Below are positions 1 through 10,372 of a stretch of DNA of 37,575 nucleotides, one piece after another. Positions within the stretch are counted from its first letter, which is position 1, and every line of letters starts with the position of its first letter. The DNA lies in NCBI GenBank assembly GCA_038056715.1, contig JBBUEZ010000004.1, forward strand, positions 1-37,575, read 5' to 3'. The DNA is from Patescibacteria group bacterium. Lineage in GTDB: Bacteria > Patescibacteriota > Minisyncoccia > Phycocordibacterales > JBBUEZ01. The notes beneath the pieces are model-generated. The model saw only the letters and a program-made list of their open reading frames with translations, had not been told where the DNA came from and did no database searches. The position numbers and the translations under genes were made by a program.

Positions 1-140
1 TTTTTGGATTTCTGTATTATTTGATTTGGATTAAAAAATTTTCTTCCCCCAAAATTAAAACATGGTTCGAGCTGATGTTTTTCTCCGGGCTCTTTTGCGG
101 TTTTTAGTCGTGCGGCTCCGCCGCGCTTGGGAATTTTTGG

Positions 141-211
141 TGCGGGTGGGGGGAATCGAACCCCCGTCCCAGTCTTGGAAGGACCGCATTCTACCACTAA
201 ACTACACCCGC
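141..211 (-). tRNA. tRNA-Gly (anticodon UCC)
   Basis: The reverse complement GCGGGTG..CACCCGCA folds as a cloverleaf. Anticodon loop is CTTCCAA and T-arm is GGGGGTTCGATTCCCCC. No CCA is encoded. Confidence 0.9.
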
Positions 212-273
212 AATTTGCTAAATATAGCGTATTTTCTCCCCCGCCACAACATAATGTGCGATATAATGCGGGC

Positions 274-1419
274 ATGGTCCGCATTCTGCATATCGGCATA
301 CTTTTTTTTGCGACGTTCTTTACGTTTCTGTTTCTCACTGGCAACCCGATTCGAGAGACATATGTTTCTGCGCCGCCAGCGCCGAAAGAAACAGCGCCGA
401 CAGACCCCAAAACAGAGAGGTCGGATACTGACAAAAAACAAGAAAAAACGACAATCGCCGAAGACACTGCCCGCGCTACGGATGCTGTTTCAAAAATAGC
501 CGAGACAGTTGCCGGTCTCCGGCAAAAAATTGCAGATGTTGTCTCCATGAGCTCCGTACCGCTGCCGTCGCAATCCCCAGAAGAAACCAACGCGGCGGCG
601 CGCGCGGCGCTCGTGAATATCTATTGCGCGACCCAATCAGCGGGGACAACCCGCCTCTCAACGGGAAGTGGCGTCATGATTAACCCGCGCGGCATTATCC
701 TCACGAACGCGCATGTCGCACAACACTTCCTTTTTGAAAACGCGCCTGCGTTCGGAAACACCGACTGCATCATTCGCGCCGGCTCTCCCGCCTCCCCTTT
801 CTACGACGCGGAAATACTTTATATTTCGCCTTCGTGGATAAAAGAGAATGCGGCGGCGTTCAGAGAAGAAAACCCGCGCGGCACCGGCGAAAACGATTTC
901 GCGCTTCTCTATGTCACTCGCTCGCTCAGAAAAGACACTTCTTTGCCGGAGCAATTCCCCTATCTCACACCAGAAACAGACGCCGAGACAATTAGAAAAG
1001 GTGATTCCGTTCTCCTCGCAAGTTATCCTGCAGGATTCTTGGGGAGCATTGCGATACAAAAAGACCTTTATCAAACAAGCACTATAGCCCAAATCAAAGA
1101 ACTGTTCACCTTCAAAGAAAACTCCGTTGACATGTTTTCAGTCGGCGGCAATGTTGTTGCGCAGAAGGGGTCTTCCGGTAGCGGTGCTGTGAGTCTCACA
1201 ACCGGAAAAATCCTCGGCATTGTCGTTACAAGCGGCGAGAGCGAAACAACAGATGGCCGCAACTTACAAGTAATTGTGTTCGCGCACATGTCAGAAAGCA
1301 TGAAAAAGGATGTCGGGTTCACGCTCGAAGAATTCCTTTCCGGAGACCCTTCCGCGGAAGCGGCATCATTCCAGAAAAACGTCTCCCCCGTTCTTCTGCA
1401 ACTATTGAGCGCACAATAA
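274..1419 (+). CDS. Secreted/membrane-anchored trypsin-like serine protease (S1 family, HtrA-like core without an obvious PDZ)
   Basis: Catalytic triad context is LTNAHV, NDFALLYV, GSSGSGAV, after an N-terminal hydrophobic segment. The ATG at 274 is chosen because the longer ORF (127) overlaps tRNA-Gly. TATAAT at 262-267 lies 6 nt upstream. Confidence 0.8.
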   Translation: MVRILHIGILFFATFFTFLFLTGNPIRETYVSAPPAPKETAPTDPKTERSDTDKKQEKTTIAEDTARATDAVSKIAETVAGLRQKIADVVSMSSVPLPSQSPEETNAAARAALVNIYCATQSAGTTRLSTGSGVMINPRGIILTNAHVAQHFLFENAPAFGNTDCIIRAGSPASPFYDAEILYISPSWIKENAAAFREENPRGTGENDFALLYVTRSLRKDTSLPEQFPYLTPETDAETIRKGDSVLLASYPAGFLGSIAIQKDLYQTSTIAQIKELFTFKENSVDMFSVGGNVVAQKGSSGSGAVSLTTGKILGIVVTSGESETTDGRNLQVIVFAHMSESMKKDVGFTLEEFLSGDPSAEAASFQKNVSPVLLQLLSAQ

Positions 1420-1442
1420 AATCCCCACACCAAATTTCATGA

Positions 1443-1467
1443 TCGGGCCGCCGAGATTTGAACTCGG
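1443..1467 (-). other. Orphan tRNA-like 3' fragment (T-arm plus acceptor 3' strand only)
   Basis: The minus strand reads CCGAG-TTCAAAT-CTCGG-CGGCCCG-A. No matching 5' acceptor strand ([CU]GGG[CU][CU]G), D-arm or 7-nt anticodon loop occurs in the 130 nt before tRNA-Pro. Confidence 0.35.
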
Positions 1468-1572
1468 ACTATGCCTACATGAGCAGGTATGCGTGGCGGG
1501 GCGAACCAAATCTGTTAAAAGTTTCCCGTGCGGTTTCCTGCGGAGACTTCCTGTGTTTCTATTTAAAAACTA

Positions 1573-1645
1573 GTCGGGGTACTCGGATTTGAACCGAGAC
1601 TAAATCCTCCCAAAGGACTTGTGCTACCGTTACACTATACCCCGA
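1573..1645 (-). tRNA. tRNA-Pro (anticodon UGG)
   Basis: The reverse complement TCGGGGT..ACCCCGA-C has anticodon loop TTTGGGA and T-arm CTCGGTTCAAATCCGAG. Confidence 0.9.
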
Positions 1646-1814
1646 TTATTTATACCTTTACTGTTTCTAATCTCACTATGTAAAATCCGATGACAATTTG
1701 CGCAAACAACTTCGCATTTCTTTATCTCATTTTTAATACGATCAAAACCTACGGCCCATACTGCTTACAATGCAATGCATCTTACCATTCGCTCTCGGAA
1801 AAAGAAACATAAAC

Positions 1815-1946
1815 CCCCACACCTTTCCTCACATGATGCCCCCATATTTTAACCGGTAACATGTAAATGGGGTTATATGCTCATTAGAAGCCAATTTATT
1901 CTTTAGAATAGAGACGTGTAAAAATAATGTGAGGAAAGGTGTGGGG
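1815..1946. repeat. Perfect 20-bp inverted repeat pair enclosing 92 nt
   Basis: CCCCACACCTTTCCTCACAT (1815-1834) is the exact reverse complement of 1927-1946. The interior has a nested CCCCAT..ATGGGG pairing. Confidence 0.8.
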
Positions 1947-1977
1947 ATAAAGGACAATGTCCTACATAAAGGACATC

Positions 1978-2385
1978 TTAAAGGACAATATTTTTGGTGT
2001 GTCGTACGACCGCTTTCTTCGTCGCCTGGTCAAGAAAGACCGCGATGATCGAGAATTCCCACTCCGTTTCACGTGGAACATTCCTGTCTAACAAATAGGT
2101 CTGAATCGCGCGTTTCAACCGAGCAATCTTATTGCTGTGCACCATCTCCTCTGGAGAAAAGTCGGATGTTTCACGTGAAATGTCCGTACTAGAGATTTCA
2201 CGTGAAACCGTCTTCACCTCAACAAAATGAAGCGTTTCCCTATTCCACGATGTTTCACGTGCAACAATATCCAACTCCCCCCACTTTTTGCGATAATTAC
2301 GCTCAATGATCTCAAAACTCTTACCTTCCAAATATCTTGTCGCAACATCCTCTCCTATAGAACCTACCGTATTATGTTTAGCCAT
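1978..2385 (-). CDS. yraN: YraN-family (UPF0102) predicted endonuclease
   Basis: G-x-x-GE..A..YL, then GELDIVA and FVEVKT motifs, with a C-terminal EFSIIAV strand. This matches the family layout. Confidence 0.8.
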   Translation of the reverse strand: MAKHNTVGSIGEDVATRYLEGKSFEIIERNYRKKWGELDIVARETSWNRETLHFVEVKTVSREISSTDISRETSDFSPEEMVHSNKIARLKRAIQTYLLDRNVPRETEWEFSIIAVFLDQATKKAVVRHTKNIVL

Positions 2386-2635
2386 TTCCTCAAAATACTA
2401 TCACAAAAGGTTTCACGTGTAACACCAACCATTATCAGCCGGCACCCACTCATTTGCCAAGGACAGTCCTTGCTAGACTTATGGGCTAGAATAGGGGGAT
2501 GCCCTAACGCTCTGTCTGGTTGTTATCTGTGCTACGGAAAAGCAAGACAAATAAATACTAAACTAATCAACCTACAGAAACGGAAAAATCTCAATAAAAC
2601 CACCTCCACCCCCCTTCAAATGTCTCACGTGAAAC
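2066..2635. repeat. Six dispersed copies of a (G)TTTCACGTG(AAA) motif
   Basis: Copies lie at 2066-2075, 2168-2180, 2196-2208, 2252-2261, 2410-2419 and 2626-2635 (inverted). Two are perfect 12-bp palindromes TTTCACGTGAAA. I saw only two other CACGTG sites in the whole window. Confidence 0.85.
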
Positions 2636-2673
2636 ACTCCAAAGTGTTTCTTAAGAAACACTTTGGAGTGTTT
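2632..2673. repeat. Perfect 42-bp palindrome
   Basis: AAACACTCCAAAGTGTTTCTT|AAGAAACACTTTGGAGTGTTT was checked base by base. It overlaps the sixth CACGTG motif copy and is followed by an AT-rich tract. Confidence 0.9.
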
Positions 2674-2746
2674 TGATTAAAACGACATAAAAGTCCTTAT
2701 TTAAAGCCATTTTATTGGACTTTTAATATCTAATAAAAGTCGTCCT

Positions 2747-2775
2747 TTATACACATGTCCACCGAGTTATCCACA
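2747..2775 (+). promoter_or_regulatory. Two DnaA-box-like 9-mers in direct orientation
   Basis: TTATACACA (2747-2755) and TTATCCACA (2767-2775) both fit TTATNCACA. They sit next to an AT-rich stretch at 2675-2745. Confidence 0.35.
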
Positions 2776-2924
2776 GTTTTGGACGTTTTCCGCCTTATTC
2801 CTGCGTTTCGTGTCTTTCATTTTTCCCAATCATGTTGTGAGATTTAGTGTCCTTGATACCTCTCTCTATGCTATATATAAATGGCCGCCGCTTACGCGAC
2901 GACCATTGTCTGCTTTTTTGGTCA

Positions 2925-3131
2925 TTAGCCGCGGCGAATTCCTCCGCCGCCAATAGGATGTTTCTCAAGGACATCGCTGATGTCCCCGTAGTAACAATCC
3001 TGGTTGACCTCCGCGCCGTTGATAGTAGGACGCTTACCATCAACGCGTGGCTCAAGCGGATTTCCACAACCACAGCCGCACACCTTCTTTCGCGGCGGAA
3101 GATCCGCCGCATCTTTCAACGATAAAGTCAT
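2925..3131 (-). CDS. Small Cys-containing hypothetical protein (68 aa, CGCGCG motif)
   Basis: GGAGGAGG lies 8 nt upstream of the ATG. The start overlaps the stop of the upstream small ORF (ATGA). Confidence 0.6.
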   Translation of the reverse strand: MTLSLKDAADLPPRKKVCGCGCGNPLEPRVDGKRPTINGAEVNQDCYYGDISDVLEKHPIGGGGIRRG

Positions 3132-3289
3132 CGCGAGATCCTCCTCCAGAAGTGTCGTATTACCTCGCGCCGTTTCCGGCGATACTTCGCACCCATACTA
3201 TCAATACTCATGCGGGTAAAGGGGTGAAAAAAGAGCCACATGATCCAAATCACCTCTTCAAATGCCCGCCGCGCATAAGAACGCAACAT
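3128..3289 (-). CDS. Small basic protein with one hydrophobic segment (53 aa; below the ORF-track cutoff)
   Basis: AAGGAGGG lies 7 nt upstream of the ATG. Hand translation gives MLRSYARRAFEEVIWIMWLFFHPF... The TGA overlaps the next ATG. Confidence 0.5.
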   Translation of the reverse strand: MLRSYARRAFEEVIWIMWLFFHPFTRMSIDSMGAKYRRKRREVIRHFWRRISR

Positions 3290-3574
3290 TATTGAACCCT
3301 CCTTAACAAGGTTTCGGTTGTGATGCTCGCCTATGCCGACTATACCCGCTTTCTATTTGACAAGCAACGTGCGCATTTTTATTGGAAGCGGCCAGAATAC
3401 CCCGTCCGCTTGGCGGCGGGGATGAATGGCCGCATAATGAATTGTGCGCCCGGTGGGGCGCGCCTTGCCAACAAAGTTTTCCCGGTGCCCCGCCTCATAC
3501 CCCGCCCTAGTACTCCGAGGGAACCGCTTGCGGCGGGGATAGGACGGGGCAAATTTTATGAGTTAAAAAGGATC

Positions 3575-3605
3575 GGCAAACCGCACGAGTTTGCCTCGTT
3601 TTTTT
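3575..3605. terminator. Hairpin with T-runs on both sides (bidirectional terminator downstream of tRNA-Gly-GCC)
   Basis: GGCAAAC-cgcacga-GTTTGCC is followed by TCGTTTTTTT on the plus strand and GATCCTTTTT on the minus strand. Confidence 0.55.
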
Positions 3606-3606
3606 G

Positions 3607-3677
3607 TGCGGGCAAGGGTAATCGAAACCCTGTCTCGTCCTTGGCAAGGACGCGTTCTACCACTGAACCATGCCCGC
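3607..3677 (-). tRNA. tRNA-Gly (anticodon GCC)
   Basis: The reverse complement GCGGGCA..TGCCCGC-A has anticodon loop TTGCCAA and T-arm AGGGTTTCGATTACCCT. Confidence 0.9.
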
Positions 3678-3687
3678 AATGTGCGTG

Positions 3688-3716
3688 ATTATAGCCGATA
3701 ATCTTCTTTGTCTCAA
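3688..3716 (-). promoter_or_regulatory. Sigma-70-like promoter for tRNA-Gly-GCC
   Basis: The minus strand reads TTGAGA, a 17-nt spacer, then TATAAT. The -10 ends 10 nt before the mature tRNA 5' end. Confidence 0.55.
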
Positions 3717-3755
3717 ACTGTTGGCATATATGCGGTGCTCGCACTCTTTTATTTC

Positions 3756-3790
3756 ATATCATACCAAACACTCGGTGTTTGGTATGATAT
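3756..3790. repeat. Perfect 16-bp-stem hairpin (ATATCATACCAAACAC-tcg-GTGTTTGGTATGATAT)
   Basis: Its 19-nt core AAACACTCGGTGTTTGGTA recurs identically at 15718-15736. Confidence 0.85.
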
Positions 3791-3944
3791 CATGAGGACC
3801 GCGAGTACGCTTATCGGTCCTTACAGGACCAGTACACCTTTCGCATCGTGCTCGTGCTACTCCGCGCGATATGCTCAAGGTCTTCAATTCCTCACGCCGC
3901 GCGCGCAAGCGCGCGGCTACTCGGTCATTTTCGCTTCGCTCAAA

Positions 3945-4016
3945 TGCCCTCATGAGGAATCGAACCTCAATTACAAGCTTCGGAAGCTTGCGTCCTATCC
4001 GTTGAACGATAAGGGC
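3945..4016 (-). tRNA. tRNA-Arg (anticodon CCG)
   Basis: The reverse complement GCCCTTA..TGAGGGC-A has anticodon loop TTCCGAA and T-arm TGAGGTTCGATTCCTCA. Confidence 0.88.
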
Positions 4017-4059
4017 TCTTTGGTGTTGGTGTCCGTTGAACGACGGGGAACTATCAAAA

Positions 4060-4132
4060 TGCGCCCGGCAGGAATCGAACCCACAACCCTCTGCTTCGAA
4101 GGCAGATGCTCTATCCGTTGAGCTACGGGCGC
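4060..4132 (-). tRNA. tRNA-Arg (anticodon UCG)
   Basis: The reverse complement GCGCCCG..CGGGCGC-A has anticodon loop CTTCGAA and T-loop TTCGATT. Confidence 0.88.
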
Positions 4133-4194
4133 AGAATATTATTGCATCATAACGCGGAATTTGGAAATGGGCAAAAATACGATACAATGCCAGC

Positions 4195-5682
4195 ATGAAA
4201 CTATTCTCTGTTCCGAAAGAAATTGAAAATGTAACGGGGGCCCTGCAAGAAGCTGGATTTCAAGCGTATTTGGTTGGCGGATGCGTGCGCGATATGGTCC
4301 GCGTGGAGAAACCGAAAGATTGGGACGTGGCAACGGATGCAACGCCTGATGAAATTCAAAAAATATTTCCACATGCATTCTATGAGAATGAATTTGGAAC
4401 TGTTGGCGTGGTAAATGATCCCTCGACTGGCTCGGGACAGGCGATAGATGAGACGCTGAAAGTCGTGGAAGTCACGCCGTTTCGCATAGAAGGGAAATAC
4501 ACGGACGGAAGGCGTCCGGACACGGTGCATTGGAGCAAACATTTGAGCGACGATTTGAAGCGGCGCGATTTCACGATGAACGCAATCGCGTATGACCCGA
4601 CGGAAGACAAACTTGTTGACCCGTTTGGCGGGCAGGCGCATATCAAAGACAAGATGATTGTTGCGGTGGGGGAACCGGAAGAACGATTCGCGGAAGATTA
4701 TCTTCGCATGCTTCGCGCGGTGCGATTTTCCGCGGAACTGGGGTTTGCGATAGAAGTGCGCACGATGGACGCAATTCGCGCGCATGCGAAAAATATCACG
4801 GCGGTCTCCGCGGAGCGCGTGCGTGAAGAATTTTCAAAACTCGTGATGTCGGCGCGCCCGAAAGAGGGAATTGAGATCGCGCATGAACTGGGCATCTTGG
4901 CGCATATCGCGCCGGAAATGGAAAAGGGGATTAGCGTGGAGCAAAACGGCGACCACATCTACGACGTGTGGGAACACAATCTTCGCGCGCTCCAGCATTC
5001 CGCGGATAGGCAGTGGCCACTTCAGGTGCGGCTTGCCGCGATGCTCCATGATGTATCCAAGCCGGAAACAAGGCGGTGGTCAAAAGAAAAAAATGACTGG
5101 ACGTTCTACGGACATGATGTGGTGGGCGGTCGCGTTGCGCGAGAGGTTTTGACACGGCTCAAATATCCGAAAGAAATTGTGGAGAATGTGTCCAAACTGG
5201 TGCGCTATCATCTTTTTTTCAGCGATATTGAAAAAATTACGCTCTCCGCGGTGCGGCGCATCGTTTCTAATGTCGGTCCCGAACTTGTGTGGGACCTGAT
5301 GGACGTGCGCGCCTGCGACCGAATAGGCATGGGACGCCCGAAAGAAACGCCGTATCGCCTGCGCAAATATCACTCTATGATAGAAGAGGCGATGCGCGCG
5401 CCGGTATCTGTGGGAATGCTTAAAATTGACGGCGCGAAAATTATGGAAATAACCCACGAGAAACCGGGGCCTCGCTTGGGCTGGATACTCCACGCGCTTT
5501 TGGAGGGTGCGCTTGAAAATCCCGATATCAATACGGAGGATGAAATGGCATCGCGCGCGCTGACACTTGCAAAACTTTCCGACACGGAATTACGCGCGAT
5601 AGGGGAGGCAGGCAAAGTAAAAAAAGAGCAGGAGGAAAAAAAGGAATTGGAAGAAATCAGAAAGCGATATGGAGTAAAATAG
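4195..5682 (+). CDS. cca: CCA-adding tRNA nucleotidyltransferase with HD domain
   Basis: N-terminal LVGGCVRD..DWD polymerase-beta motif, an RRDFTMNA motif, and an HD region (HDVSKP, YGHD). TACAAT lies 6 nt before the ATG, with TTGGAA at the -35 position. Confidence 0.9.
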   Translation: MKLFSVPKEIENVTGALQEAGFQAYLVGGCVRDMVRVEKPKDWDVATDATPDEIQKIFPHAFYENEFGTVGVVNDPSTGSGQAIDETLKVVEVTPFRIEGKYTDGRRPDTVHWSKHLSDDLKRRDFTMNAIAYDPTEDKLVDPFGGQAHIKDKMIVAVGEPEERFAEDYLRMLRAVRFSAELGFAIEVRTMDAIRAHAKNITAVSAERVREEFSKLVMSARPKEGIEIAHELGILAHIAPEMEKGISVEQNGDHIYDVWEHNLRALQHSADRQWPLQVRLAAMLHDVSKPETRRWSKEKNDWTFYGHDVVGGRVAREVLTRLKYPKEIVENVSKLVRYHLFFSDIEKITLSAVRRIVSNVGPELVWDLMDVRACDRIGMGRPKETPYRLRKYHSMIEEAMRAPVSVGMLKIDGAKIMEITHEKPGPRLGWILHALLEGALENPDINTEDEMASRALTLAKLSDTELRAIGEAGKVKKEQEEKKELEEIRKRYGVK

Positions 5683-5782
5683 GAAAAGAAAAAAGTTTAG
5701 AAAAATAATGGAGCATGGCGGAATATATTTTTCTAAACCCCGCCATAATTTTACCGCCAGAAGATCATGAAATCAGACTACG

Positions 5783-5818
5783 TTAGACAAACAGTAACGG
5801 CCGTTACTGTTTGTCTAA
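5783..5818. repeat. Perfect 36-bp palindrome
   Basis: The sequence is TTAGACAAACAGTAACGG|CCGTTACTGTTTGTCTAA. Confidence 0.85.
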
Positions 5819-5912
5819 AGTTATAGATTGTATACGTTAAGCATGACAAATATACCACCCCTTGTCGGGCGAAGCGCGACGCCGTAAACTTACAAGTAAA
5901 ATTAGGGCGGGG

Positions 5913-5951
5913 GAATTGGCGGAAATTAGGAAAAGGTATGGGGTGAAATAA
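5913..5951 (+). repeat. Reiterated cca 3' end, copy B (encodes ELAEIRKRYGVK*)
   Basis: It aligns codon for codon with 5644-5682. The differences leave the encoded peptide nearly unchanged (one residue differs). Confidence 0.8.
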
Positions 5952-5953
5952 TT

Positions 5954-6961
5954 ATGAAATACTCATTTTCAAAAATATTCCTGGCGGTAATGTTAATCTT
6001 CTTTGCCTCCGATGTTAGTCTTGCGCAAACACAATATAAATATAGTTCTCTCAAGGAGATTTTTGAAAACTCCGATTCCTACAATAATAAAAATGTTTCT
6101 ACCGGAGGGACTGTTTCTGAAATATTGGATTCTGCAACTCTTAGTGGATCAAGGTATATTTTTGGTTTTTGGATGATTGATGAAAATAAAAATACAATAC
6201 GCGTTGTAAGTGCTGATAATATGGTTTTAATTGATGGAAATGTTGTAATAGTTGATGGTAGGTATTACAAAAGATTATATGCCGATGACCTCAATTTTGA
6301 TGACACAATTGTTGCTTCGGGTGATAATATACAAGTCGTTTTAACTGCTAGTGAGTTGTGGAATGACATACTTGGTCCATTTGGAGAATCTTTGAATATT
6401 GGCGATAGGCTAGCAACCAAAAATGAGTCCTTACAAAAAAGAAGTATTGTTCTTGCAGCCTTAATCCCATTGTTTACGGCCGGAGCGTTTTATCTCGGCC
6501 TTATATTTTACAAACGAAGACAGTTTAAAGGGAGAAGCTTTGAGGGGTATGTGGAAAGCCTTTTCCGCAATAACAAGGAATGGAGAGTGGGGCAAGATAA
6601 TTCATACAGAAAACTGCGGAAAGGGTGGGTGGAATCCTATGGCAATCCTGACTTTGTATTTATTCACCGGAGAACGAATCAAAAAATAGCGGTGGAATGC
6701 AAATATAAAGAAAAGGAATACGAGAGAATTTTTTGGGCTGACGAGAATCAAATTGAACGTTACCAAGATTTTTCTGCTAAAGAAAAAATGCCGGTCCTTG
6801 TGATTATTGGGGTTGGTGGCAGACCAAAGAATCCAAAAAGGATGTTTTTTGCGCCACTAGATAAGATTAAATATCCCGATGTAAAAATGGATTATCTGCA
6901 AAAGTTTGAGCGAGACCCGAGAAAACCTCTCTCGCTTGATAGTAATGGGAAGTTGGTTTAA
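5954..6961 (+). CDS. Signal peptide + extracytoplasmic beta-rich domain + TM + cytoplasmic PD-(D/E)xK nuclease-like domain
   Basis: The signal peptide is MKYSFSKIFLAVMLIFFASDVSLAQ and the TM is IVLAALIPLFTAGAFYLGLIFY. The nuclease-type motif is NPDFVF..IAVECKYK (D..ExK). The gene is visibly AT-rich. Confidence 0.65.
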   Translation: MKYSFSKIFLAVMLIFFASDVSLAQTQYKYSSLKEIFENSDSYNNKNVSTGGTVSEILDSATLSGSRYIFGFWMIDENKNTIRVVSADNMVLIDGNVVIVDGRYYKRLYADDLNFDDTIVASGDNIQVVLTASELWNDILGPFGESLNIGDRLATKNESLQKRSIVLAALIPLFTAGAFYLGLIFYKRRQFKGRSFEGYVESLFRNNKEWRVGQDNSYRKLRKGWVESYGNPDFVFIHRRTNQKIAVECKYKEKEYERIFWADENQIERYQDFSAKEKMPVLVIIGVGGRPKNPKRMFFAPLDKIKYPDVKMDYLQKFERDPRKPLSLDSNGKLV

Positions 6962-7621: not shown

Positions 7622-7625
7622 AAAA

Positions 7626-7643
7626 GGGGCACATATGTGCCCC
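7626..7643 (-). terminator. Intrinsic terminator of the 121-aa gene
   Basis: The perfect hairpin GGGGCACATATGTGCCCC is followed on the minus strand by TTTTCTATTTC. Confidence 0.6.
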
Positions 7644-7650
7644 CTCATTC

Positions 7651-8016
7651 CTAAAAAAACGTGATGAACAACTCAAATTTCTCGAATGGCTCTGCGAGCA
7701 GTACAGTTACTCTGTCACACCCGTGGTGGTCATAGAATACTATCTTCTCGTCACCGATTATCGTGCTTATAACATTCCCTTCTGAAACTTCTGAAAACAA
7801 AGTCAGCTCCGGATACTTATACACGGCACACAAAAAGTATGCATGTAGCCCAAAACCAGGATGGCCACATGTCGGATCAGAGCCATTAGACCGAATCTGG
7901 GCTTCTATTAGACGCCCATTATTATGTAGGGTGATGACTTCTTTCTCATTTTTTCTCACCCCTAACATTTCGGAGAACTCTTTTATGCCCACACACCTAC
8001 TATTTAAGCGTCGCAT
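7651..8016 (-). CDS. Hypothetical protein (121 aa), no family recognised
   Basis: AAGGAGGA lies 5 nt upstream of the ATG, and the gene has its own terminator. Confidence 0.6.
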   Translation of the reverse strand: MRRLNSRCVGIKEFSEMLGVRKNEKEVITLHNNGRLIEAQIRSNGSDPTCGHPGFGLHAYFLCAVYKYPELTLFSEVSEGNVISTIIGDEKIVFYDHHGCDRVTVLLAEPFEKFELFITFF

Positions 8017-8168
8017 CGTAATCCTCCTTCTTTAGGAACATACTAATTTATATTTTACACACAAGGAGAATTTTTGTCATTTTTGTCGTCATAATACATA
8101 AAACATTGACATTTTCTATTGAAATATAATATACTCGTGTTGTCGCTTTTTTAGACATCTTTTGAGAA

Positions 8169-8927
8169 ATGGGAGAAACTAAACATTTATCTTTGCTTAC
8201 TGATCTCGGACTTTCGACAAACTCGGCGGAAATATACCTTGCGTCGCTTTCGCTTGGACCATCATCCATCCTTTTTTTAGCGCGCGAAACCGGCATAAAA
8301 CGCACTACCATTTATTCAATCGTGGATGATCTTATACGAAAAGGGCTAATGCGGATTGAGGTGAGAGGATTTAAGAAATTTTTTGCTGCTGAAAACCCAG
8401 AAAGGCTCGAGCATATGCTTGAGCTGCGGCAAAAACAAATTGGGAAATTCTTGCCCGAACTTCAGGCCCTTTATAATCTCAAAAAGGGTGAGAGTATCAT
8501 TAAATATTACGACGGTCCGGAAGCAGTAAAATCAGTATACGAGGAGATTCTCCGAGAGATACAGCCGCACGAAGAATATTTGAGTGTCGGGAACCCGACA
8601 CAGTGGTTTCCCTTGGACGCAAGATATCTTGAGAATTTTATGGAGCGAAGAGCTGAGTTGTCTCGCGGGCTTAATTTTACTATTCGCTTGTTGCTAAAAG
8701 AATCAGAAAAGGCGTTTGATCTAAAAAAATATGAGAAGAATTACAATGAGAAGATAAAGATATTGCCTAAGGATGTGTCGTTTTCAAGCAATCTTATCAT
8801 CTTGCAACGCAAAATTGTCATCCACCAGCTCACTGCGCCGATCAAGGCAATTGTGGTTGAAAATGAAAGCACCGCTCAATTGCAGCGAGAGTTATTCAAT
8901 ATTATTTGGAGATCCATTGGCGAATAG
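8169..8927 (+). CDS. TrmB-like winged-helix transcriptional regulator
   Basis: The N-terminal HTH is LGLSTNSAEIYLASLSLGPSSILFLARETGIKRTTIYSIVDDLIRKGL, followed by the extended C-terminal domain typical of TrmB. An upstream TTGACA is followed by an A/T-rich TATAAT-like stretch. Confidence 0.75.
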   Translation: MGETKHLSLLTDLGLSTNSAEIYLASLSLGPSSILFLARETGIKRTTIYSIVDDLIRKGLMRIEVRGFKKFFAAENPERLEHMLELRQKQIGKFLPELQALYNLKKGESIIKYYDGPEAVKSVYEEILREIQPHEEYLSVGNPTQWFPLDARYLENFMERRAELSRGLNFTIRLLLKESEKAFDLKKYEKNYNEKIKILPKDVSFSSNLIILQRKIVIHQLTAPIKAIVVENESTAQLQRELFNIIWRSIGE

Positions 8928-8952
8928 TGCCACGGGATCAAAAATAAGTTTG

Positions 8953-9007
8953 GCAGAAAGAGGAAAAAGAATTGGCAGAGATTAGAGAACGCTACGGGGT
9001 GAAATAG
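8953..9007 (+). repeat. Reiterated cca 3' end, copy D (encodes QKEEKELAEIRERYGVK*)
   Basis: In-frame translation parallels the cca C-terminus KKEQEEKKELEEIRKRYGVK*. Confidence 0.8.
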
Positions 9008-9414
9008 AAAAACCGGCGCGCTTTTGGCGACACCGGTTCGTTGTTGGCTGGAAGTACCCGAGGAACGCGCAATGGCTCCTCCGCGTCTCGTTGCACCCGA
9101 AACCGTGAGTGAAACATCTAGCGGGACGCGCCCGCGCTTTCGCTCCGCGGCAGATGGCTTTGCCACCATGCCGACTCCGCTCGTCATCACTCATTCTCCC
9201 ACAACCCATTGCGTAAGAATAAGCGAGAAAGCGGTGCCGCTACTTTGCGAATCGGGGTTTTACCCTCTCCCGCGCTTAATGGCGCGCATACTGATTGCAA
9301 TGAGGGATCGTCAGTCCTTAGTCGCCTCTTGCGAGACGAATACGAGCGTTCGCTCGGCATGACTAGGCGCCGTTTGGCGCCTGCGCTCACTGCAAATTCT
9401 TAAACTCAAAACTA
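9004..9414 (-). ncRNA. Candidate structured non-coding RNA of about 400 nt, class unknown
   Basis: It has its own promoter (9421-9448) and a terminator hairpin at 9011-9038 followed by a U-run. There are many hairpins. The GCAA tetraloop and the G-U pairs exist only in the minus-strand reading. No convincing ORF or RBS is present. Confidence 0.45.
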
Positions 9415-9420
9415 TTTTCA

Positions 9421-9448
9421 ATGATACACTAAACGCCATTCCTGTCAA
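9421..9448 (-). promoter_or_regulatory. Sigma-70-like promoter (TTGACA, 16 nt, TATCAT)
   Basis: Read on the minus strand. It drives transcription into the GC-rich 9004-9414 segment. Confidence 0.55.
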
Positions 9449-9456
9449 GACAACTA

Positions 9457-9484
9457 TTGACAAATGCGTATATGTGTGTATGCT
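9457..9484 (+). promoter_or_regulatory. Sigma-70-like promoter (TTGACA, 16 nt, TATGCT)
   Basis: It is divergent from the previous promoter and lies upstream of the 9548 CDS. Confidence 0.5.
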
Positions 9485-9547
9485 TTAAAACGATATAGGC
9501 TCTTTCATTTCAACTTCAACAAAACCCCGCAAGGGGAGGAGGCAGAC

Positions 9548-10159
9548 ATGACGATGGACATTTCAGGTTTCCGCGCGCCGCATTTGGGCAAGCGCGTGGT
9601 CCCAGAGTATCTACGCCGTGAGGCGCCGGCGAAGAAGGCGTCGGCACCCGCGCCAAAAGTGATGTCCACGGAGGAGCGGGTTGTCCACTTCTTCCGCTGG
9701 GCGAGGAACGGGGCGACCTCTCAGCAGTTGGAGGGTCTCGCCCGCGACCTCGGCATCACCGAAAACATGGAAGTGAGGCGGACGCTCCGCAGGATGCAGC
9801 CGCTCACGACCGGCCAGAAGGTTGGTCGATTCTTCGCCCTCGCCTCCGAGGATGACGCGAAAGCGGTGGACTTGCTCCACCAGGCGAAGCGAGATGAGAT
9901 TCTTCACATCCGCATCGTCCGCGATAAGATTGCGGACGTGGAGGAACGCAGCCTTCGTCCGAAGAAGTACGGGTTGCGGGAAGCGATCCTCGCGGCGGGG
10001 AAGTTCATCCCGCCGACCGAAGTCGCCGTGAAGAAAGAGGATCGCCCGACCAATGTCGGGAATCCTCGCGGGAAGGGTCCGGGCGGCTCAAAGCCGGGGC
10101 AATCATCCAATCCGGAGACCGCCGCAAAGCGCGCAAGGAAGGCCGCCCAGCGGAAGTAA
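9548..10159 (+). CDS. Hypothetical protein with a Lys/Arg/Gly-rich tail
   Basis: GGAGGAGG lies 6 nt before the ATG at 9548. The annotated ORF start (9464) lies inside the promoter. The gene is GC-rich compared with its neighbours. Confidence 0.6.
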   Translation: MTMDISGFRAPHLGKRVVPEYLRREAPAKKASAPAPKVMSTEERVVHFFRWARNGATSQQLEGLARDLGITENMEVRRTLRRMQPLTTGQKVGRFFALASEDDAKAVDLLHQAKRDEILHIRIVRDKIADVEERSLRPKKYGLREAILAAGKFIPPTEVAVKKEDRPTNVGNPRGKGPGGSKPGQSSNPETAAKRARKAAQRK

Positions 10160-10226: not shown

Positions 10227-10260
10227 TCTATTCTCTAATTCGCACGAATTAGAGAATAGA
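10227..10260. repeat. 16-nt inverted repeat (TCTATTCTCTAATTCG / CGAATTAGAGAATAGA)
   Basis: Read directly from the sequence; the arms are separated by 2 nt. Confidence 0.8.
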
Positions 10261-10372
10261 ATCAAGATAAAAACTATCCGCTATTGGCTAACGACTAATT
10301 TAATCGGGCAGTGGTCCGAATGAGTATATTCTCACCCGCTCCTCGCTCGCCGGAATAAAAAACAAACGCATA

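Follow-up and report, generated by a model that had tools for sequence, protein, structure and literature searches.

Among the described systems closest to the locus reported here are structured RNAs with genes of their own: OLE, raiA, ROOL and GOLLD on the one hand, and the Y RNAs on the other. OLE RNA works with the proteins OapA and OapB, which are encoded adjacent to it, and bacterial Y RNA genes adjoin rsr, the gene of the Ro60 system. In a 37,575-nt stretch of the genome of a Patescibacteria group bacterium (contig JBBUEZ010000004.1, positions 1 to 37,575; hereafter the window), an earlier note made from the sequence alone had proposed that a GC-rich minus-strand segment of about 400 nt is a stand-alone structured RNA of unidentifiable class. 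The segment lies next to a divergently transcribed gene for a 203-residue orphan protein. The analysis reported here supports the proposal: the segment most probably represents a true gene, encoding a ~400-nt folded non-coding RNA (ncRNA) of an undescribed family. We put at about 60% the fuller reading that this is a stand-alone structured ncRNA gene, of a family outside Rfam that belongs to a narrow group of groundwater and soil Saccharibacteria, and that its product would act in trans and form a ribonucleoprotein with the neighbouring protein.

Like OLE, raiA, ROOL and GOLLD, the locus stands alone as a gene that has a promoter and a terminator to itself and is rich in GC within an AT-rich genome, and its product has many helices, a GNRA loop, a restriction to one lineage and no known function. 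It differs from them in that its core is only ~115 nt long with variable appended domains, its distribution is far narrower, it has no Rfam 15 match, and its neighbour protein is unrelated to the known partners. With the Y RNA/rsr pair it shares a modular structured ncRNA that lies beside the gene of a presumed protein partner; unlike that pair, it has no TROVE/Ro60 protein and no Y RNA model match, and partner binding is here only presumed. No description of such an RNA was found in full-text literature searches, and it is a new family among the lineage-restricted orphan structured RNAs that are seen as GC-rich intergenic regions.

A conserved 115-nt junction domain

Near-identical sequence occurs in groundwater, aquifer and soil metagenomes. 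A sister strain (L002, a 686-kb contig) has flanks that are 95-97% identical to those of the window and an RNA that is 97% identical, and a metagenome-assembled contig of an uncultured Candidatus Saccharibacteria (L008) carries a full-length copy of ~85% identity in the same gene order as in the window, with the same promoter, neighbouring gene and downstream exonuclease III gene. An nhmmer search with a three-sequence alignment reaches further loci (L009-L013) that match the first ~118 nt of the RNA (E = 3.7e-23), and comparison of Logan contigs of groundwater and soil runs with the window adds at least four more diverged partial variants.

The part common to these sequences folds into a multi-helix junction in which a closing helix, P1, encloses four hairpins, H1-H4 (Table 1). 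Its alignment (A7, n = 5) combines the sequences of the window, of L008 and of L009 with two variants reconstructed from read-placement tables; the reconstruction is incomplete, as a check against L008 revealed one unlisted substitution. Standard pairs fill 96.8% of the cells of the A7 fold, against 36-44% when partners are slid by 1-3 columns, and six pairs changed on both sides, against 2.4 +/- 1.1 in shuffles, only 1 of 500 of which gets to six. The lineages compared differ by more than 25% within this domain. Among fully sequenced loci, compensatory changes replace U-A by C-G in P1 and C-G by U-A in H1, and in L009 both kinds of exchange (U-A to C-G and C-G to U-A) appear in H3. In H2, read tables give G9355A together with C9344U in two independent runs, and an abundant variant has CGAGU-AGAAAU-ACUCG where the window has CGAGC-GAAC-GCUCG (C-G to U-A); the same variant has CACUC-GCAA-GAGUG in H3 where the window has GUCUC-GCAA-GAGGC. 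The H3 loop is GCAA in the window, L008, L009, variant V5 and one further partial variant, and GAAA in variant V2, while the H4 segment UAAGGACUGACGAUCC is invariant across all sequences compared. Both the conservation of the segment and its compensatory changes exceed chance, and the structure of the junction domain is conserved through compensatory substitutions (n = 5).

With a covariance model of the domain (R1), scores of 123-135 bits are reached in the window, L002, L008 and L009; the model has no further match elsewhere in 89 kb of compared sequence, nor in L022, a contig taken up below. The minimum-energy fold of the L009 RNA independently yields the junction domain (z = -5.1).

Table 1. 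Features of the RNA locus and its surroundings (window coordinates).
Feature	Position	Strand	Remarks
Predicted primary transcript, ~410 nt	9004..9414	(-)	Based on promoter and terminator positions
RNA promoter	9421..9448	(-)	-35 TTGACA 9448-9443, 16-nt spacer, -10 TATCAT 9426-9421
Junction domain	9288..9402	(-)	nhmmer, covariance model R1, compensatory changes
P1 closing helix, 10 bp	9395-9386 with 9304-9295	(-)	Encloses H1-H4
H1, 7 bp	9382-9376 with 9371-9365	(-)	Loop AAAC
H2, 5 bp	9356-9352 with 9347-9343	(-)	Loop variable (GAAC in window)
H3, 7 bp	9339-9333 with 9328-9322	(-)	GNRA loop GCAA
H4, 3 bp	9317-9315 with 9307-9305	(-)	Invariant 7-nt loop CUGACGA (9314-9308)
Structured 3' extension, ~250 nt	9039..9287	(-)	Common to window, L002 and L008 only
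Variable hairpin	~9283-9270	(-)	Part of 3' extension
Long pyrimidine/purine hairpin	9238-9173	(-)	Part of 3' extension
Hairpin GGCAUGGUGGC-AAA-GCCAUCUGCC	9172-9149	(-)	Part of 3' extension
Hypervariable hairpin tip	~9135-9090	(-)	Part of 3' extension
Intrinsic terminator	9002..9038	(-)	Stem CCGGUGUCGC / GCGCGCCGG, loop CAAAA, then UUUUUCUAUUU
CCA-adding enzyme 3'-end remnant, 48 nt (EEKELAEIRERYGVK*)	8959..9006	(+)	Aligned to cca ends
Divergent promoter TTGACA-16-TATGCT	9457..9484	(+)	Serves 203-aa open reading frame
5'-UTR hairpin CCCC-GCAA-GGGG	9525..9542	(+)	3' arm overlaps Shine-Dalgarno GGAGGAGG (9535-9542)
Orphan protein gene, 203 aa	9548..10159	(+)	Strong GGAGGAGG ribosome-binding site

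Fold, strand and transcript boundaries

Read from the minus strand, the RNA (417 nt) folds at -173.2 kcal/mol (z = -4.69), with none of 100 dinucleotide-preserving shuffles as stable, against -146.1 kcal/mol for the plus strand (z = -1.21; 14 of 100 shuffles as stable). The alignment fold likewise gives -153.6 in the sense and -120.8 in the antisense direction, and many one-sided changes are of the form G-C to G-U or G-U to A-U, so that pairing survives only on the minus-strand reading. The defined polarity that the earlier note had argued from the GNRA loop and the G-U pairs is borne out by all three comparisons. The four hairpins named there all exist, and three are retained in relatives: AGGCGCC-AAAC-GGCGCCU (H1), UCGUCUC-GCAA-GAGGCGA (H3) and GGCAUGGUGGC-AAA-GCCAUCUGCC in the 3' extension. 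The fourth, GCGGG-CGCGU-CCCGC (9135-9121), is not conserved; it falls within a hypervariable patch, where a G to U change in L002 and L008 disrupts it by leaving a U-U mismatch.

The near-consensus minus-strand promoter read in the same note (TTGACA-16-TATCAT) is of the sigma-70 type and agrees with the consensus at 11 of 12 positions, with a GTG immediately 5' of its -10 box, and the RNA region holds four promoter-like sites against 0.9 expected. Its -35 TTGACA and a motif TTTAGTGTAT(C/A/T)(A/C)T recur in L001, L008, L016 and L017/L009, as well as in the loose ends of read variants. The hairpin and U-run said to close the GC-rich segment were found as well (9038-9004), at the end of a region (9000-9400) with a GC content of 55-60%, against 36-45% to its left: the GC-rich hairpin spans 9036-9013, and UUUUUCUAUUU comes after it at 9012-9002. 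A simple terminator scan missed this terminator because its stem carries an internal mismatch. It is retained with changes in L008, and another terminator, CCUCCGAC-AAAA-GUCGGAGG-UUUU, occurs in L009 and one soil variant. From these signals the RNA would start at about 9412-9414, 7-9 nt past the -10 box, and end in the U-run at 9012-9002, and we infer its transcription from the conserved promoter and terminators only. Metatranscriptome coverage at the RNA does not exceed that of other parts of the window's first 20 kb.

These observations decide how much weight to give to a non-functional GC-rich spacer, whether transcribed or silent, whose structure would come from base composition and close relatedness. 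GC-rich DNA folds well anyway, the sample is small, the 3' 250 nt are without covariation and expression is unproven; yet the z-scores of -4.7 and -5.1 were obtained under dinucleotide-preserving shuffles that control for composition, four helices carry double compensatory changes, H4 and the GNRA loop are invariant, and a promoter and a terminator are kept also in lineages whose terminator has another sequence. The spacer is also hard to reconcile with the pattern of divergence from L002, whose RNA shows 14 gapless substitutions, 13 of them in the 3' third; the 5' 284 nt have just one, a C to U change that faces a G, against flanks that diverge by 3-5%. We regard it as quite unlikely.

The lineage-specific 3' extension

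In the window, L002 and L008 the junction domain begins 10-20 nt past the predicted start and is followed by the ~250-nt extension and then by the terminator. The RNA of L009 (~380 nt, from a TTGACA-N16-TATACT promoter) has the same domain at its 3' end, directly before its terminator. Because the domain thus sits in a different structured RNA, we take it to be the portable functional unit; and because that RNA is otherwise unrelated, the 3' 250 nt of the window RNA are lineage-specific, with thermodynamic support only. The conservation and covariation in relatives that the earlier note had asked for are both present for the 5' 115 nt; the 3' 250 nt have as yet no comparative support. Within the extension, indels among the window, L002 and L008 fall in hairpin tips and all 14 of 14 one-sided changes pass via G-U pairs. 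Outside the junction domain, local alignment of the window RNA with those of L009 and L016 gave no similarity above shuffled controls. Motifs GGGUUGUGGGAGAA and GGCAUGGUG, seen by eye as common to the window extension and the L016/L009 RNAs, were rejected because their scores equal the shuffled means. We also dropped a soil variant as a natural mini-RNA of junction domain plus terminator: it carries the L009-type terminator and so more probably represents an RNA of the L009 type, in which the domain comes last.

Neither coding sequence nor a known RNA class

Open reading frames (ORFs) of 50-112 aa occur on both strands of the RNA segment. No frame matches a family in Pfam, PHROGs or NCBIfam, the kind of homolog that the earlier note had said would undo its proposal, and none shows a synonymous excess. 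The ORFs of the window were never called as genes in a collection of 15 billion predicted proteins, and the single ORF that a gene caller did accept (156 aa, in L002) is a singleton cluster that we judged spurious. Indels between the window and L008 measure 1, 1, 2, 8, 3, 1, 11, 5 and 2 nt and are mostly not multiples of three. There is, in short, no coding signal. For the segment to be a protein-coding gene, the mRNA of a small protein or a decayed GC-rich foreign pseudogene, one would point to the ORFs of 64-112 aa on both strands, to the L002 ORF called by the gene caller, and to a 117-nt block in which a minus-strand frame with MSDDERSRH... shows 5 synonymous versus 7 non-synonymous changes against L008. 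Besides lacking family matches and gene calls and breaking at indels, such a frame would have a putative AUG with GGAG just 1 nt upstream, inside a long hairpin, and an unstable length (75 aa in the window, 161 in L002, ~30 in L008). We consider a coding origin highly improbable.

Scanning with Rfam covariance models, the check suggested in the earlier note, returned no family. At gathering score Rfam 15 finds five tRNAs only in the whole window, and at E<=10 with lax filters it gives three noise matches only in the 901 nt around the RNA (8800-9700) and noise only in the L009 and L016 homologs. OLE, ROOL, GOLLD and raiA models have no match at E<=10 in 8800-9700 or the L009 homolog; neither do models for signal recognition particle (SRP) RNA and 6S RNA at E<=10 in 8800-9700. 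Group I and group II intron models do not match either; the locus lies between genes and has a promoter to itself.

RNase P RNA with RnpA and tmRNA with SmpB offer a superficial likeness, in that each joins an RNA of ~400 nt to a nearby gene for a small basic protein, and RNAs of the Candidate Phyla Radiation can be unusual; a housekeeping RNA that has diverged strongly, be it RNase P RNA, tmRNA or a long SRP RNA, could then have been missed by standard models. The RNase P RNA models find no match at gathering score in the whole window, at E<=10 in 8800-9700, or in the L009 homolog. ARAGORN reports five tRNAs and no tmRNA in the window, Rfam gives no tmRNA, and tRNA-like ends and a tag frame are lacking. 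The 203-residue neighbour is neither RnpA nor SmpB, carrying no SmpB or other Pfam or NCBIfam domain. The conserved domain shifts position, being 5' in one lineage and 3' in another, which none of these RNAs is known to tolerate, and RNA family and protein are both very narrowly distributed. We give this explanation minimal credence.

A further comparison is with riboswitch aptamers built on multi-helix junctions, such as the lysine riboswitch with its five-way junction. These share with the RNA a P1 that encloses hairpins, invariant junction and loop nucleotides and a GNRA loop, and in L009 the domain is directly followed by an intrinsic terminator. The likeness ends at the genomic position. 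No gene follows the RNA on its strand in the window or L009, and in L008 only a remnant of the end of the CCA-adding enzyme gene (cca) does; the next gene in the window (TrmB-like, 8169-8927) is on the opposite strand and convergent beyond the terminator at 9038-9002, which does not overlap P1. In L009, too, the next gene is convergent. Known aptamer models find no match in the window or the L009 homolog. Since no gene follows it, the RNA is probably not a leader or riboswitch and would act in trans.

The divergently transcribed orphan protein

The promoters of the RNA and of the orphan protein gene are divergent, their two -35 boxes standing back to back 8 bp apart (TGTCAA-N8-TTGACA), an arrangement also found in L001, L008, L016 and L017/L009; the contigs of L001, L016 and L017 stop before the RNA position, though they retain this architecture. 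The 5'-UTR hairpin of the protein gene is retained, with loop or stem altered, in L001, L008, L016, L019 and L021, and may serve as a site of translational control or autoregulation. Both genes, for the RNA and for the protein, have a higher GC content than the DNA that flanks them.

The protein belongs to no Pfam, PHROGs, NCBIfam or PADLOC family. An AlphaFold2 model of moderate confidence (pLDDT 68) shows a core built of helices only (residues ~40-150) together with disordered basic tails, and the C-terminus carries a conserved motif, PTNVGNPRxKGPGGSKPG...KRARKAAQRK. It falls into six clusters among 5.8 billion proteins and has 11 relatives among 1.84 billion representatives. In 4 of 4 loci that have a close protein homolog and sufficient flank (window, L002, L008, L009), the junction domain lies within 0.4 kb of the protein gene.

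Several observations on this protein stand by themselves. L009 encodes tandem paralogs (4001-4660 and 5370-5945) with the RNA gene between them, and a DUF5317 membrane protein gene occupies the divergent position beside the first. The tail, in the form KPTN[VI]GNPxPKGP...NPKKAxKxxRKxAQRK, is also attached to unrelated N-terminal parts (P0010, P0012, P0013, P0014; L022 3001-4566); one of the proteins that carry it is 521 aa long and weakly matches DHH phosphoesterases. On sequence grounds the tail looks like a modular unit. L022, which encodes the DHH-like protein with this tail, has no junction domain.

The shared promoter region raises the possibility that the RNA regulates its neighbour, either the RNA or its transcription tuning the protein gene through promoter competition or through pairing with GGAGGAGG. 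In the pairing version, read by eye, a pyrimidine stretch GUUCCUCGGG (~9066-9057) would bind the GGAGGAGG held in the CCCC-GNRA-GGGG hairpin. The divergent geometry is conserved in at least five lineages, the hairpin that covers the Shine-Dalgarno sequence is conserved too, and the CCUC-containing segment is retained in the window, L002 and L008. That segment, however, lies in the lineage-specific extension, for which no L009 homolog was found, whereas the part that is conserved is the junction domain; and a 115-nt junction kept by covariation exceeds what a base-pairing regulator needs. We rate regulation of the neighbour as unlikely on this evidence.

Genomic setting

The wider gene order is conserved as CCA-adding enzyme, RNA, orphan protein, exonuclease III, XerC/D-type recombinase, NYN and polynucleotide phosphorylase, with rpsO called in that stretch in L002 and L016. 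Judged from gene order, this looks like a chromosomal rather than a mobile setting. The RNA has as neighbours a TrmB-like regulator, the orphan protein, a membrane protein and exonuclease III.

Two sharp breaks near the RNA had other causes than a module edge. The break at 9456-9458 would fit an RNA module moving on its own, an idea we rejected: it marks an IS30-family insertion of ~1.1 kb in L002 (8894-9992), between the divergent promoters and absent from the window, whose transposase is split by a frameshift in the long-read contig. The insertion in the sister strain also accounts for the many short-read contigs that end at 9456. On the left side, the break at 8959-8989 is explained by the cca remnant, which repeats the final 15 codons of the gene, abuts and overlaps the RNA terminator, forms the left edge of the conserved block, and aligns with the true cca 3' end (window 5635-5682), the L009 cca end and L008 255-300. 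Between the true cca end and the remnant lie ~3.3 kb with an ORF at 5954-6961, a HicB-like gene, an ORF at 7651-8016 and the TrmB-like regulator; the stretch looks like inserted material. Within it, a 1.36-kb block (7625-8989; ORF 7651-8016 and TrmB-like 8169-8927) is absent from L002.

Surroundings that vary between strains in this way, through the L002 insertion and the 1.36-kb presence/absence block, are what one would expect of a mobile, toxin-antitoxin or defence module on a variable island, in which the RNA would be an antitoxin, guide or template acting with its neighbour. HicB-like, ParE-like and integrase genes nearby, the high GC content of RNA and protein gene against their flanks and the tandem protein paralogs of L009 could be read the same way. 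No tandem repeats of the kind seen in type III antitoxins (ToxI-like) occur in 8900-9600, though, and the gene next to the RNA runs divergently, its product matching nothing in PADLOC or Pfam; no reverse transcriptase, RuvC/HNH nuclease, DEDD recombinase or TnpB/IscB gene is adjacent; HEARO, retron and CRISPR models of Rfam find no match; and the gene order across lineages is that of a chromosomal core region. A mobile or defence role therefore has a small chance in our estimation.

Other features of these sequences were noted in passing. Downstream of the orphan gene, at window 10227-10262, a perfect 16-bp palindrome, TCTATTCTCTAATTCG-CA-CGAATTAGAGAATAGA, is present in a single copy in the window; in groundwater runs its word depth is 73-130, against ~3 for its flanks, and many different flanks are joined to it, so that it is a multi-copy element in the community. 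An element GA(G/U)GAUGGGGAUGGUGUGAUG is shared by L019 (~440-600, minus strand) and L021 (1-30, minus strand), downstream of small membrane-protein genes that lie near distant orphan-protein homologs; in L019 it folds into a long hairpin with a terminator after it, and it may be another small RNA. In L022 a GC-rich stretch (~165-430, minus strand; 54-60% over ~250 nt) has promoter- and terminator-like ends and faces a TrmB-family gene in convergent orientation; Rfam and the junction-domain model both give no match to it. The window carries five minus-strand tRNA genes at 138-4133 (Gly-TCC, Pro-TGG, Gly-GCC, Arg-CCG, Arg-TCG), and a 182-nt piece is inverted relative to L002 (L002 2347-2528 = window 3558-3377).

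Distribution, proposed mechanism and what weighs against it

Our preferred reading, a stand-alone ncRNA gene whose product works with the orphan protein, carries a mechanism as follows. The RNA would act in trans, with the invariant H4 loop and the junction as a putative binding surface. Its most likely partner would be the divergently transcribed small basic helical protein with which it shares a promoter region, and RNA and protein would be made together and work as a ribonucleoprotein. More speculatively, and with distinctly lower confidence, this may be a new ribonucleoprotein of a Saccharibacteria clade, in which the junction domain is a putative protein- or ligand-binding core onto which lineages graft large domains at either end, and in which the protein tail PTNVGNPxPKGP...NPKKAxKxxRKxAQRK, found also on unrelated proteins including a DHH-like phosphoesterase, could be a shared tail for docking to RNA or to a machine.

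The preferred reading must be tempered by several observations. The family is rare: the pattern AATTTGCAGTGAGCGCAG...TAGTC gives one hit (L008) in 185,579 GTDB species genomes. It matched no viral contig (IMG/VR), and GGACTGACGATCCCTCANTGCAA had no match in JGI metagenomes or viral contigs; these genome and metagenome pattern scans were exact-match and hence insensitive. Peptide patterns for the window protein and P0002 found nothing in JGI metagenomes or GTDB, but they were too strict and would miss even the L008 protein; blastn against phage and plasmid collections gave no match. Only five sequences stand behind the junction domain, two of them rebuilt from incomplete read-placement tables, and the 3' 250 nt show no compensatory pair among three sequences, a comparison with no statistical power. 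The lone RNA run that contains the sequence does so as an unstranded 153-nt contig at depth 2 (the minimum), covering 9309-9458 and so including the promoter. No RNA-binding fold can be recognised in the orphan protein, and the PDB holds no significant match to it by fold or by sequence; the loci of its distant homologs (L019, L020, L021) have no nearby junction domain, and its link to the RNA is suggested by gene order and shared promoter architecture only.

Significance

A narrow distribution and a small sample limit what can be made of this family, but its features are useful in several ways. The junction domain is a compact 115-nt fold, supported by covariation and with an invariant loop, and the placement of one and the same domain at opposite ends of the RNA in two lineages, 5' and 3', is a natural experiment in domain shuffling. 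The locus adds a candidate protein partner without known relatives, and it is a target for covariance-model mining and for structure and binding studies. It also carries a warning for annotation, as gene callers place spurious ORFs on the RNA gene. To our knowledge, very few RNAs specific to the Candidate Phyla Radiation have been described. Saccharibacteria and other bacteria of that radiation have tiny genomes with little spare DNA, and a selected non-coding gene of ~400 nt is therefore likely to be important to their unusual lifestyle.

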